From Schmidtea nova (taxonomy: Eukaryota): a stretch of DNA of 55,541 nt. Made by a program: the position numbers and the translations under genes. Below are positions 22,920 to 45,900 of this stretch, piece after piece. The stretch lies in NCBI GenBank assembly GCA_044892505.1, contig CM097882.1, forward strand, positions 297,228,001 to 297,283,541. Reading direction: 5' to 3'. The stretch's first letter is position 1. Each line of letters starts with the position of its first letter. The notes below the pieces were generated by a model. It was given only the letters and a program-made list of their open reading frames with translations. It was not told the origin of the DNA and made no database searches.

Positions 22920-22950
22920 AGATATTTATATATAAATTTGAGCCAATCAG
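22920..22950 (-). promoter_or_regulatory. Inverted CCAAT box plus TATA box upstream of the small gene
   Basis: The minus strand reads TGATTGGCTCAAATTTATATATAAATATC, overlapping the TBP-like stop codon and ending about 35 nt before the ATG at 22884. Confidence 0.45.
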
Positions 22951-23355
22951 CGTTCAACCAATCCAGTGATTTCAATAGCAAGATTGTTAATAAATGATTG
23001 GTACTCTAGATTTTTAAGTCCGAACACAACAACTTTACCACTAGAAAATATGTTGACACACAGCGGATTATGTTGTAAAAGCCTTAAAGCTGGGAAAAGT
23101 TCTGGTTCAAACATACAATTAGTTTTTTTGTGACAGTTTGTATAAGTTAATATTAAAACCGATGTTAATTATTACTGTAATTGATTGAATTTGAATATCA
23201 TTGATATTATATTTCAAATCATTTCTAATAATTGGGTTCTTGCAACCCATTATCTTACATTTGCCAGATTTGAAAAATATAAACGTATATTTTTCAGTTC
23301 TATCAACTATTTGTTGTGGCTTTCCATTTGGAAAGATCATTTTGGAAACATCCAA
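22947..23355 (-). pseudogene. TBP-fold (TATA-binding protein-like) gene of Maverick, 5' truncated by gypsy
   Basis: ..FIFFKSGKCKIMGCK..IQIQSITVIINIGFNINLYKLSQK, then a +1 shift in an A7 run, then CMFEPELFPALRLLQHNPLCVNIFSSGKVVVFGLK..VER*. This matches the TBP repeats (LIFSSGKMVCTGAK; YEPELFPGLIY..LIFVSGKVVLTG). Confidence 0.8.
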
Positions 23356-24100
23356 AATTGTGAGCAGGCTTTTGAGAATATGAAATTGGCATTGATAACC
23401 GCACCAATCTTGGTATTTCCGGATTTTAAGAAAGAATTCATATTGAATACGGACGCAAGTTTTGACACGATTGGCGCAATCTTATCACAGAAGGATGACA
23501 TGAGATATGAGCAAATTATCGCATATGGATCACATGCGATGAATAACCACGAAAGGGGTTATTGTATTACGAGAAAAGAATTTCTGGCTATATACTATTT
23601 TAACCGACATTTGAACCATTATTTATATGTAAAAAGATTCACACTACGTACAGATCATAAGGCAATAACGTTTATGCTAACAACAAAGAAGACAGTTACA
23701 GCTCAATTCCAGACCTGAATAAACTATTTAAGCAGCCTTGATAAAAAATGGAATTTAGAAAAGGTACATTACATACTAACGCAGGCATGTTATCCAGGAA
23801 AACGTGTGGCACATGTGTGCAATGCCTTATGGATCACGAAAATCCTAAAATGGGAAAAATGAAAACCAGATTGTTAAATAAAATGACTGAAGGGAAAGGA
23901 GAAGAATGGCAAAGAAATAGTGAAGAAATAGAAGACATTAAAAATAAAATAAGAACTTAACCAAGTAAAAGATTTATAATAGAAGATAACATTATTTACA
24001 CCAAAGAAAAAAGAATATGGATACCAGAAAGTAAAAGAAGAGAAACGATTAAGAAAACACATTTATTATTATGTCATGCTGGAGTTGATAAAGTTATCAA
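23356..24100 (+). mobile_element. Ty3/gypsy pol fragment (RT connection, RNase H, start of integrase Zn domain)
   Basis: CEQAFENMKLALITAPILVFPDFKKEFILNTDASF..IGAILSQ..IAYGS..ERGYCITRKEFLAI..FTLRTDHKAI..EFRKGTLHTNA..LSR, then HLLLCHAG. Confidence 0.9.
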
Positions 24101-24101
24101 A

Positions 24102-24180
24102 TACAGGAATACCTCGCATAGTACGGTTTCGATCAGTACGGTTTCTCTATAGTACGGTTTTGAAATTTTCAAAATATGAT
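24102..24180 (+). mobile_element. Possible pogo/Tigger-like element end
   Basis: TA-CAGGAATACCTCGCATAGTACGG followed by repeated agtacggttt. It resembles Tigger-type termini; the other end was not found. Confidence 0.25.
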
Positions 24181-24469
24181 TGTTTTTAAAATGATTAAAT
24201 AAAATTTTCGAAATTTAAAAAAGTTTTTTTAAAATTAATTTTTTAGAATTTATTCGTTATTATAAAATCAATAGATCAATAATAGATCAAAGTTGTTGGT
24301 TTTATATTTTTAATCGTAGAGTATGTTGACTTTTATATATTTAGATTTTAATTTAAAAAATTAATCGTGCATTTCTATTGCATCACTATTGCAGTCATGT
24401 CACATGTTAGTATGAAATCAACAAAGGCTTTATCTTCGATAATTGATTTTATATCGTTAATAATATTAT

Positions 24470-24856
24470 CAACTATAGTTGAATAGTCTTTGTTTTTTAA
24501 TCCTAATATGACTAATTTCCCACGCAAATATATTCACACACATGAGATTATATTTGATATATCTCAAAGCTGGAAATAATTCTGGCTCGTAAACACACTA
24601 TCAATTTAGATAATTCATTTAAATTACAAATAAATCCTAAATCCGCAGTTACAGTTATCGATTGTATTGTTAAATCGTAAAACTTGACTTGTTCATCACT
24701 AATAAATTCCTTGCATCCCATTATTCTATATCTGCCTGTCTTAAAGTATATTATTGGATATTTTCCACTTTTATCTACAATTTGCTGTGGTTTCCCAGTT
24801 GATAATTTCATGTGTGACACATCTGTCTTAACCTTGTAATTAATGTTTCTAATCAT
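24470..24856 (-). pseudogene. TBP-fold gene, second diverged copy
   Basis: MIRNINYK..GKPQQIVDKSGKYPIIYFKTGRYRIMGCK..IQSITVTADLGFICNLNELSK..(shift)YEPELFPALRYIKYNLMCVNIFA(shift)GKLVILGLK. Confidence 0.8.
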
Positions 24857-24948
24857 TACTGAAAATATTTTTAAATGAAACAATTACTTTGACAACGAGT
24901 ATTTAAAACAAATATAAACAATAATACTAGTTTAATATAATTTAAAAT

Positions 24949-25130
24949 ATGGAATTAAGAAATGATGCAGTGTTTCAAATTGTTGGTCCGAGAGGGTGGA
25001 AAAACTTTATTTGTTTGTAAATTACTACAATCGAAATTATTCAAATCTAAATTCAATAAAAGTTAATGGCATAGGGGTGCTGACGATGAACATGGAATGA
25101 CTCAAGATCAATCAACAATCATGCAAAATA
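24949..25130 (+). pseudogene. Maverick packaging ATPase, N-terminal fragment
   Basis: MELRNDAVFQIVGP(shift)GGKTLFVCKLLQSKLFKSKFNK..GADDEH is a Walker A region, collinear with 45935 onward. It is truncated where it meets PolB copy C. Confidence 0.75.
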
Positions 25131-25135
25131 TTATC

Positions 25136-43918: not shown

Positions 43919-43935
43919 ACATCCATAAATCACCA

Positions 43936-43988
43936 ATTATTATTATTATTATTATTACTATTACTATTAATATTATTATTATTATTAC

Positions 43989-44020
<32 letters not shown>
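43936..44020. repeat. (ATT)n microsatellite
   Basis: Direct reading. Confidence 0.9.
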
Positions 44021-44022
<2 letters not shown>

Positions 44023-44162
44023 GTATGGAGTAGTGAGAACTCTAGTACAAGTCATTTAATTAATAATTATATAGTTTACCACTAAAAGCGTTTGGGTAGG
44101 GGGTATACAAAAGTTAAATAATGCTTTGTAATTATAGAATAATTCATTTTTTACATAAAATT

Positions 44163-44345
44163 TTATAATTGCCACATTTTTATTAACATGCTTTCCTTGT
44201 ATATATGTGTGGTACACAATTTGCAATCGATTTTTCTTCCCGATGAGCTTGAGTCTTGACATTTTGAACATAGCATATAACCGGATGACAATGCAATATT
44301 GAACAATTTGCCACAGGTTCGGACCAAAGGTTCGGAGCCCTCATA
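44163..44345 (-). pseudogene. Possible degenerate RING-like zinc-finger ORF (Maverick-adjacent)
   Basis: TCGKLFNIALSSGYMLCSKC..IDCKLC has RING-like C-terminal Cys spacing but some ligands are missing. Confidence 0.3.
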
Positions 44346-44994
44346 TAAAAGACGGTTGTAAAAGTGATGAAAATGACAAAATGTATAATAATAATAAAGA
44401 TTTTTCACTGACAGAAGATTAAAATGCAGAAAATAAATAAGGATAAAAATCTTTTTAAAATACCACGTTTTAAAATGAACTAAAAAAGAGAAAATAAAAT
44501 TTTCCTACCCCCATACAAAAAGTTCTGAGAGCTTATGATTGTAAAATTTTACAAACATGAAAACCTTTGTGAAATTTAAAATGAAAAACGTGGAGCACAC
44601 GCATTTAATTGTATAATATATTTCCAATAGCTACATAATGCTTAAAAAGTTTAAACTATGATGTTAAAAGATTTCACTCTTTAGTTGAAACCCCTTGTGA
44701 GTTTTAATGCTAAACTATTAAGAATTGAATTACGAACAAGAACACATTTAAATTTCACAACATGAAAAATCACTCCCCTCAGACAAAATTTCCGACGTAA
44801 AAGGAATCGACTCTCACAATTTCCAAAAATTAAAAGTGATTCAAAATTGTAATATTTTAATGATAACCTATTACGAATTGAAACACAAATAAAAAACATG
44901 AAAAATCACTCTCCCTCGACTAAAACACAATAATTTAAAATAAATTTTATTTAAATAAAATATTTGGTATCATTGGAAACTTCTTCTTTGGCAT

Positions 44995-45382
44995 TTATTT
45001 AGTGTTGTAAATATCTAAATAGAACACCTTCCACATTTTGGCAACTAAAATATTAACTGATTGATGTCGTTTGAAGTGATGACAGCAAAAGCATTCATTT
45101 AAGTAAGAAACTGGCATTGTATCATTGTATACAACACAGTTTTCGACACATTTAACGCTATACCCAAGCACCAAATCATAGAGCATTTCGAACAACTCCT
45201 CGATATTGATACCAGTGAAATGGTATATTTTGTGTACCAACAATTCGGTGACACAGTAATCATGACTACTTTTAATAGTCGGAAACAACTCTTTTATATT
45301 TTTAAGGATGACTTCGAATAAATAGACTAAAAAATAAATTTAAATAAAAATAAAATATCAACATACTCCTACGTTTAGACAT
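44995..45382 (-). CDS. Small two-exon Maverick-associated Cys-containing protein (paralog of 22519..22884)
   Basis: Exon 45382-45367, 40-nt GT..AG phase-1 intron, exon 45326-44995: MSKRRIYLFEVILKNIKELFPTIK..LLVHKIYHFTGINIEELF..ECFCCH..DIYNTK. Confidence 0.6.
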
Positions 45383-45499
45383 ATTTCATATTTTCATATT
45401 TTCATATTTTCATATTTTCATATTTTCACAATCAATGAATAACAATTAATACAAACAAAATTTATTTAATAATTTGATGTATTTATTTCACTAATAATA

Positions 45500-45900
45500 T
45501 TTTCCCCATAATTTTTATAATCCAAAGTTTTAATTCCAAGCACAACAACTTTGCCACTTGAAAATATATTTAAAGATACAGGATCAAATTTCTGTAGGTA
45601 ATGCCGGAAATATTTCTGGTCCGAATCATCAATGACATTCCTTTTGTAATTCTTATGAATTGATAAATTTCCCGATGTCGACCATCGCGGTAATTGATTG
45701 AATCTCTAAATTTTTTAACTTGAATTTCAAATCACCTAGTTTTAAACGTTAATTGAATCTCATTACCGGATTCTTGCTAGATTTGAAAAAGTTGATTGAG
45801 TACTTACTGCTTCTATTTACAACGTGTTTCGGTTTTCCGTTTGTAAATATCATGCCGGGAACTAAACATGTACTTTTATAATTGATGTTGCTTAAAATTT
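45500..45900 (-). pseudogene. TBP-fold gene, third diverged copy
   Basis: NINYK..GKPKHVV..INFFKSSK..EIQSITAMVDIG..FGPEIFPAL(shift)..SLNIFSSGKVVVLGIK, with in-frame stops. Confidence 0.78.

Follow-up and report, generated by a model that had tools for sequence, protein, structure and literature searches.

A TBP-like gene fixed in Mavericks of Schmidtea nova and the variant TATA box that it is likely to read

Broken copies of the TBP-like gene in the window

The window analysed here is a 55,541-nucleotide stretch of the Schmidtea nova genome (GenBank assembly GCA_044892505.1, contig CM097882.1, positions 297,228,001 to 297,283,541), whose AT-rich DNA is a nest of Maverick (Polinton) fragments rather than a single element. 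Three broken copies and a duplicated 3' tail of a gene of about 156 codons lie in it (coordinates below are those of the window), and Pfam, a structure model and Foldseek agree that the gene encodes a protein with the fold of the TATA-binding protein (TBP), as the original prediction had proposed from TBP motifs that are indeed found in the sequence. Copy 1 (22950–23355, minus strand) carries one frameshift near 23120–23130, and its two frame pieces match Pfam PF00352 with E-values of 7e-5 and 1.5e-7 (23 and 31.6 bits; cut-off, 22.9). Its 5' end is lost, about 10 N-terminal codons being replaced by an abutting fragment of a Ty3-type reverse transcriptase/RNase H (23356–23715, plus strand; Pfam RT_RNaseH_2, E = 8e-29). 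Copy 2 (24399–24856, minus strand; tblastn E = 4e-68), with frameshifts near 24595 and at 24530–24540, lies where it had been predicted and reaches 24399, about 70 nt beyond the end given earlier (24470). Its pieces match the family profile (E = 2e-22, 3e-11, and 2e-4) and, taken singly, gave no Pfam TBP match at E ≤ 1. Copy 3 (45472–45898, minus strand) is the most decayed, with stops and one frameshift near 45595; its C-terminal piece matches Pfam with E = 0.004, and the family profile matches with E = 8e-14 and 2e-10. The three copies come from different sub-families, their best DNA matches in the genome being the loci L129 (88% identity), L227 (an uninterrupted copy, 93%), and L018 (68%), respectively. 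The 3' tail (29312–29392, plus strand; tblastn E = 2e-9) is an inverted duplicate of copy 1, held in repeat arms at 22866–23031 and 29311–29476 that are 98% identical. A recent inverted duplication of about 2.1 kb (20929–23031 versus 29311–31415; 98–100% identity) was also seen here.

Copies 2 and 3 stand head-to-head with genes for an A32-like packaging ATPase, in agreement with the original prediction: a 5' fragment at 24937–25171 (plus strand; tblastn E = 5e-12) and a broken gene at 45926–46496 (plus strand; tblastn E = 4e-36). Each ATPase is preceded on its own strand by the box TATAAACA, at 24913–24920 (the ATPase ATG, at 24949, lies 36 nt further on) and at 45905–45912 (the start of the ATPase following after about 30 nt). 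The same box recurs in the sequence at 46526–46533 (plus strand), at the 3' end of the second ATPase gene and upstream of a broken gene for a basic, putative core protein (46752–46997, plus strand; tblastn E = 4e-11), the role of which is assigned from position and composition. A broken retroviral-type integrase gene follows (47161–47987, plus strand; tblastn E = 4e-54; the reference matches Pfam rve). Other Maverick fragments are those of a protein-primed DNA polymerase B (PolB; 25118–27742, minus strand, Pfam DNA_pol_B_2 E = 6e-12; and a second copy at 16522–19951, plus strand, E = 1e-8), and of U1, an open reading frame (ORF) that comes after the TBP-like gene in the elements of this genome (22537–22800, minus strand, tblastn E = 2e-18; its inverted duplicate at 29541–29804, plus strand, was located by inverted-repeat comparison and homology search).

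Linkage to the dominant Maverick lineage

In the 1.25-Gb genome, a PF00352 search yielded 14,001 first-look candidates, 150 of which were scored; the ATPase gave about 15,500 against about 14,000 for TBP, these being candidate numbers and not copy numbers. The best seven PF00352 loci (L001–L007) are host TBP-family genes, and those read below them contain an intronless ORF of about 156 codons. The host TBP family itself comprises at least four genes, including two divergent paralogues, one of them intronless. A Maverick core gene lies within about 2 kb in 50 of 53 loci picked by TBP and in none of the seven host-TBP loci. The ATPase is head-to-head with the TBP-like gene in 49 of the 53; conversely, all 30 loci picked by ATPase have the TBP-like gene. 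The gene is thus a fixed gene of the dominant Maverick lineage of this genome, and the linkage proposed from the window alone holds at these loci.

The elements are about 14–18 kb long and encode the protein-primed PolB (PF03175), a retroviral-type integrase (PF00665) with a chromodomain, the A32-like ATPase (PF04665, E = 3e-5), and an adenovirus-type (C5) protease (PF00770, E = 3e-6). Terminal inverted repeats of 318–1073 bp were found in all four stretches examined, with AGTAG-type ends in three; one of the four has AG...CT ends with a matching 6-bp target duplication. ORFs of suitable size and position are candidates for the major and minor capsid proteins (MCP and mCP), labels that we presume from position, and these ORFs have no Pfam match and no sequence match in the PDB. 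The integrase gene contains a GT-AG intron, and the protease gene has a spliced micro-exon with a NATAAAY site 32–41 nt upstream in seven of seven cases; these features point to transcription by nuclear RNA polymerase II (Pol II).

Fold, residues and selection of the TBP-like protein

The protein is about 145–156 residues long across the family, and is encoded in this genome by an intronless ORF of about 156 codons. Natural uninterrupted ORFs match PF00352 with E-values of 1e-16 and 5e-19 (60.7 and 68.5 bits against the cut-off of 22.9). The AlphaFold model built from 105 aligned sequences (pLDDT, 95.8) has a saddle fold of two repeats, and the PDB matches listed by Foldseek down to rank 44 (E ≤ 0.001; best, 2e-9) are all TBP-containing chains. 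The two repeats that had been proposed are therefore present, but they are asymmetric: helices are predicted only at residues 80–86 and 127–154, both in the C-terminal repeat, and the N-terminal repeat is predicted to be helix-free, as against the four helices (two per repeat) of canonical TBP. The model comprises the core alone, with no Pol II-binding extension.

Three of the four DNA-intercalating Phe residues of canonical TBP are kept, Phe39, Phe96, and Phe112 being invariant in all 105 members. The position of the first Phe of the N-terminal repeat has no conserved aromatic residue, and Pro24 is found in 104 of 105. At the sequence level, the acidic residues of the C-terminal stirrup are retained (Glu94 in 105 of 105; Glu92 in 102, with Asp in the other three), as are the YEPELFP stirrup motif, the complete C-terminal repeat, and the Asn of the N-terminal repeat. 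Polar replacements (Asn7, Arg45, Ser67, Arg100, and Asn110) occur in 103–105 of the 105 members, several of them at positions that face DNA in what we take to be the correspondence between family residues and the DNA contacts of TBP. Pairs drawn from 68 uninterrupted TBP-like ORFs (83 loci) have a dN/dS of about 0.20 where dS > 0.2, and of about 0.48 where the two sequences are very close; for the ATPase the value is 0.055. At the codon level, this shows that the TBP-like gene has been under purifying selection.

Relatives and phylogeny

A public protein collection contains 165 relatives (68 clusters at 50% identity; E-values up to 1e-30). Of 58 metagenome loci with the TBP-like gene, a Maverick core gene is present in 28, and in another 17 only U2 or EXO is seen, two conserved ORFs of the elements described below; 12 of the remaining 13, which have no Maverick gene, are shorter than 2 kb. 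Gene order varies: in some elements the TBP-like gene precedes the ATPase, in others it follows EXO, and in others again it faces the ATPase head-to-head. IMG/VR, scanned with alignments of TBP, ATPase, and MCP, yielded no confirmed relative and hence no TBP-less control from outside this genome; a scan with host TBP gave one locus, which was set aside. Five TBP-bearing contigs (L024, L031, L056, L059, and L062) also encode a dual-specificity phosphatase, a ubiquitin-conjugating enzyme, and leucine-rich-repeat, RING, KilA-N, and PLA2-like proteins.

A tree was built with IQ-TREE from 55 selected of 150 rows, with no TRF2, nucleocytovirus, or herpesvirus rows among them. The 28 family rows form one clade (support, 100/100) on a long branch, which in the best tree lies outside the eukaryotic TBP clade (99/98), where all four host rows fall; archaeal TBPs form a third clade (96/95). 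Approximately unbiased (AU) tests do not reject a position as sister to the host TBPs (p = 0.231), nor one beside the host's divergent paralogues (p = 0.299), so that the separation from host TBP is that of the best tree and is not enforced by these tests. With this one caveat, none of the three outcomes that the original prediction named as refuting it (no TBP-fold match, grouping with host TBP or TRF as recent retrocopies, or most copies unlinked to Maverick core genes) was observed. The AU result is also what could be cited in favour of the copies being recent retrocopies, or passive cargo, taken from host TBP. We regard this as having next to no chance of being correct, given the distinct family clade, the 165 public relatives, the fixed linkage, and the dN/dS of 0.20; a recent retrocopy is excluded by the spread and divergence of the family.

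A variant TATA box upstream of late-type genes

A motif of the form YATAAAC or TATAAACR, shared as TATAAACA, recurs upstream of genes in these elements. Boxes were counted in 100-nt windows upstream of each gene, cases with less than 100 nt upstream or with alignments starting past residue 45 being dropped; the label 'late' is given by gene function, not by timing data. YATAAAC is on the sense strand in 88 of 113 late-type windows and on the antisense strand in four. It precedes the ATPase in 19 of 20 windows, the basic protein in 13 of 13, MCP in 13 of 13, the integrase in 13 of 14, and EXO in 15 of 17. Elsewhere the box is rare (TBP-like gene, 1 of 38; U1, 0 of 6; U2, 1 of 14; PolB coding windows, 17 of 427). 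In 200-nt windows upstream of early-type genes, YATAAAC occurs in 3 of 58 and the canonical TATAWAW in 35 of 58, as against 38 of 106 for TATAWAW at late-type genes.

The canonical TATA box is TATAAAAG. Among 53 unique sites aligned on positions 2–7 as the anchor, position 1 is T in 47, C in five, and G in one, position 7 is C in 52, and position 8 is A in 49 and G in four. An unanchored count of 6-mers likewise ranks ATAAAC first (56 of 63 windows), whereas the canonical TATAAA[AT] is found in two of the 63. The distance to the ATG is 30–39 nt for 42 of 92 sites and under 30 nt for three, with a lower edge near 32 nt, and this spacing would fit transcription that begins about 30 nt further downstream. 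A box lying within the upstream gene dictates codons there: all 18 such ATPase ends use YAT AAA C[AG]. Among ATPase relatives, 87 of 107 anchored sequences (13 of 120 without an anchor were dropped) end in [YH]K[QHR], the residues of such codons, the other 20 being mostly more distant.

Longer members of the family (L062, L064, L065, and P0108) keep the sequence span of the N-terminal-repeat helices, and the box, often as CATAAAC, accompanies such members too (L062, L064, L065, L077, P0108, and relatives). Because of this, the box seems to be older than the helix loss, as far as can be judged from these sequences.

The ATAAACA form also fits the Forkhead consensus, RTAAAYA. The box might then be a site for a host factor such as Forkhead, or else a post-transcriptional signal, with its co-occurrence with the TBP-like gene reflecting shared ancestry, as gene and box may each have a single origin in the clade. 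This is quite an unlikely explanation: GTAAAC occurs in 3 of 63 windows as against 56 for ATAAAC, 52 of the 53 unique sites begin with T or C, and the box is strand-specific, its distances from the ATG having a lower edge, as expected for a core promoter and not for an enhancer site.

This genome also contains another and rarer Maverick lineage (lineage B; L264–L266 and L268–L279), which differs in its ATPase and gene order, and has A-rich sequence immediately before its ATGs. A profile search found no TBP-like gene in it (best iE, 0.11), and the box occurs in 2 of its 29 windows, both belonging to one ORF in two copies. The contrast in box content between the TBP-bearing elements and lineage B is thus strong, though not many-fold replicated.

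Proposed function of the TBP-like protein

We propose, with a probability of roughly two in three, that the TBP-like protein is a viral late-transcription factor acting on the TATAAACR box and recruiting host TFIIB and Pol II; so far as sequence comparison can tell, it is likely to be the element's own late-gene switch. The original prediction had offered either a basal-transcription or promoter-binding factor or a competitor of host TBP. That the lineage carries its own factor is borne out by the fixed linkage, and promoter binding is preferred over competition because a matching box lies upstream of the genes.

The mechanism might proceed as follows. Host machinery would first transcribe the TBP-like gene and the putative gene for a single-stranded-DNA (ssDNA)-binding protein from host-type promoters. 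The viral TBP would then engage the minor groove of the box, the Phe pair of the C-terminal repeat lying at the 5' end of the box in the orientation that we assume for the two repeats, while the remodelled N-terminal repeat may read the non-canonical C at position 7. The retained acidic stirrup could take host TFIIB, and the loss of the N-terminal-repeat helices would remove surfaces used by regulators of host TBP. Transcription would start about 30 nt downstream of the box, just before the ATG, and the morphogenesis and integrase genes would be switched on by the viral TBP in this way. The host TFIIB core is split over exons, and a host locus at first taken for TFIIB is presumably BRF1, judging from its motifs. 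No partner activator was identified among the neighbour genes of the TBP-like gene, which include the unassigned ORFs U1, U3, and EXO.

Several observations weigh against this proposal. One intercalating Phe is missing, and the TBP-like gene has a higher dN/dS than the ATPase (0.20 versus 0.055). The box is less regular at mCP (5 of 12), at the gene labelled PW (5 of 11), and at the protease (5 of 13), where the spliced micro-exon accounts for seven cases. A single lineage, represented by three copies that are related, serves as the control, and kinship also links the TBP-bearing elements, so that Fisher tests overstate independence. Cellular TBP has been crystallised on a C(-25) TATA variant (PDB entry 1qn3; available text of PMC4402545), and host TBP can therefore bind such a box.

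This last point would also suit an explanation in which host TBP or TFIID reads the box as a weak TATA variant, and the viral protein serves as a decoy for TFIIB or TBP inhibitors or dampens host transcription. The acidic stirrup is indeed the best-kept surface, and one Phe and both N-terminal-repeat helices are gone. It is nonetheless unlikely, since lineage B in the same host is without both gene and box, and the early-type genes are those richer in TATAWAW and poor in YATAAAC; moreover, the DNA-facing residues are invariant yet changed, a pattern more in keeping with a shift in specificity than with binding having been lost. A non-transcriptional role in which the protein binds DNA and bends the element's terminal repeats during replication, integration, or packaging is suggested by the head-to-head position with the ATPase, often adjoining the probable OB-fold ssDNA-binding gene. 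That role is highly improbable, because it leaves the stirrup acids and the box unexplained and the neighbours vary among elements.

A further step, that a minimal TBP, stripped of the surface on which host regulators act and reading a private TATAAACR box, makes a one-protein early-to-late switch in a 14–18-kb integrating DNA virus lineage, is in our estimate slightly more likely than not. If so, the protein and its promoter would form an orthogonal TBP–promoter pair for host Pol II, arisen apart from the herpesvirus system, and would provide direct evidence for a regulated virion-making phase in these Mavericks.

Other genes of the elements and of the window

U2 (L030:1788–2135; L084:1596–2012) is a conserved gene of about 115 codons adjoining the TBP-like gene. 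Its model (pLDDT, 93.6) most resembles the phage OB-fold ssDNA-binding proteins Enc34 and T7 gp2.5 (TM ≤ 0.65, E of about 0.2), and U2 is probably the ssDNA-binding protein of the element. An Atlas look-up gave nothing usable for U2 and, for the TBP-like family, TBP clusters only. EXO (L088:5998–6399; L057:505–1026), a conserved ORF following the protease, has no Pfam match and contains acidic motifs that we take to resemble those of DEDD nucleases. A small ORF upstream of the integrase (e.g., L220:2682–2915), which starts with Met–Gly, contains a Cys–Cys motif, and overlaps the integrase start in another frame, possibly encodes a myristoylated virion protein. Near element ends, dense arrays of sites that we presume to be AP-1 (TGASTCA) and CRE-like (e.g., L087:6936–7099) were seen in 9 of 14 stretches and in none of lineage B; early genes could have in them a stress-responsive enhancer. 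No enrichment of p53-like or CRE-like motifs was seen in the 200 nt next to early-type genes (2 of 58 and 1 of 58, respectively).

The window further contains a host-like TFIIF-beta N-terminal domain (33044–33643, minus strand), a rhodopsin-family G-protein-coupled receptor (35926–36960, plus strand), and a piggyBac-type transposase fragment (20327–20758, minus strand).

Comparison with known systems

In gene content, the elements resemble Mavericks, Polintons, and adintoviruses, sharing the protein-primed PolB, rve integrase, A32-like ATPase, C5 protease, AG...CT terminal inverted repeats, and 6-bp target duplication. TBP is absent from the core-gene lists for Mavericks and adintoviruses in the available text of PMC8502044 and bioRxiv 10.64898/2026.06.19.733378. 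As to whether it had been reported before, which the original prediction could not tell, the literature searched mentions TBP in elements of this kind only where the adintovirus paper explains its figures (legends in PMC8502044 and bioRxiv 10.1101/697771, in the portions available), and the accessible part of the PMC8502044 supplement gave no TBP match. No analysis of a Maverick TBP was found in the literature searched, subscription papers and Repbase lying outside the search; the words TATA and promoter were not found in PMC11071308, PMC10748475, or bioRxiv 10.64898/2026.06.19.733378. According to the available text of the last, virions have not been observed for animal Mavericks. For the study of gene control and virion formation in Mavericks, the TBP and the 8-bp box offer a testable programme.

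The protein shares the saddle fold with cellular and archaeal TBPs (PDB entry IDs, 2z8u, 1ytb, and 7egb_P; TM, 0.54–0.69 by query), but differs in the N-terminal repeat without predicted helices, the loss of the first Phe, the polar and charged DNA face, and the separate long-branch clade. TBP kinks DNA at base steps 1–2 and 7–8 with two Phe pairs, and TRF2/TLF parallels the Maverick protein as a TBP paralogue that has lost intercalating Phe and serves a special promoter class; it differs in being chromosomal, and is reported not to bind TATA (all from the available text of PMC10005294). The Maverick protein, if it acts as proposed, would be a naturally occurring minimal TBP of altered specificity, from which it could be learnt how position 7 of the TATA box is read and which surfaces are dispensable. 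When expressed, it could also affect host promoters bearing the box, given the many genomic candidates (about 14,000 for TBP and about 15,500 for the ATPase).

The closest functional parallel is the herpesviral TBP, such as ORF24 of KSHV (Kaposi's sarcoma-associated herpesvirus), which likewise combines a variant TATA box at structural genes (TATTWAA at KSHV late promoters, in a system of beta- and gamma-herpesviruses), a polar DNA face, and the use of host Pol II. ORF24, however, is large and multidomain, works in a six-protein complex, has four Phe residues, has no TFIIB-binding acids, and itself binds Pol II (PMC12529657, in the text available). The Maverick protein, in contrast, is a bare minimal core with the TFIIB acids kept, in an element of about 14–18 kb, and it resembles BcRF1 weakly in structure (E = 0.03). 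Nucleocytoviruses (Heterosigma akashiwo virus, Terrestrivirus, and Marseillevirus) encode TBP homologues that share the fold (best E in BFVD, 2e-7), but are about 190–550 residues long and about 10–21% identical to the Maverick protein. They usually serve a viral RNA polymerase. The Maverick TBP, with its matching variant TATA box, is a viral TBP pared down to the smallest form among these systems.

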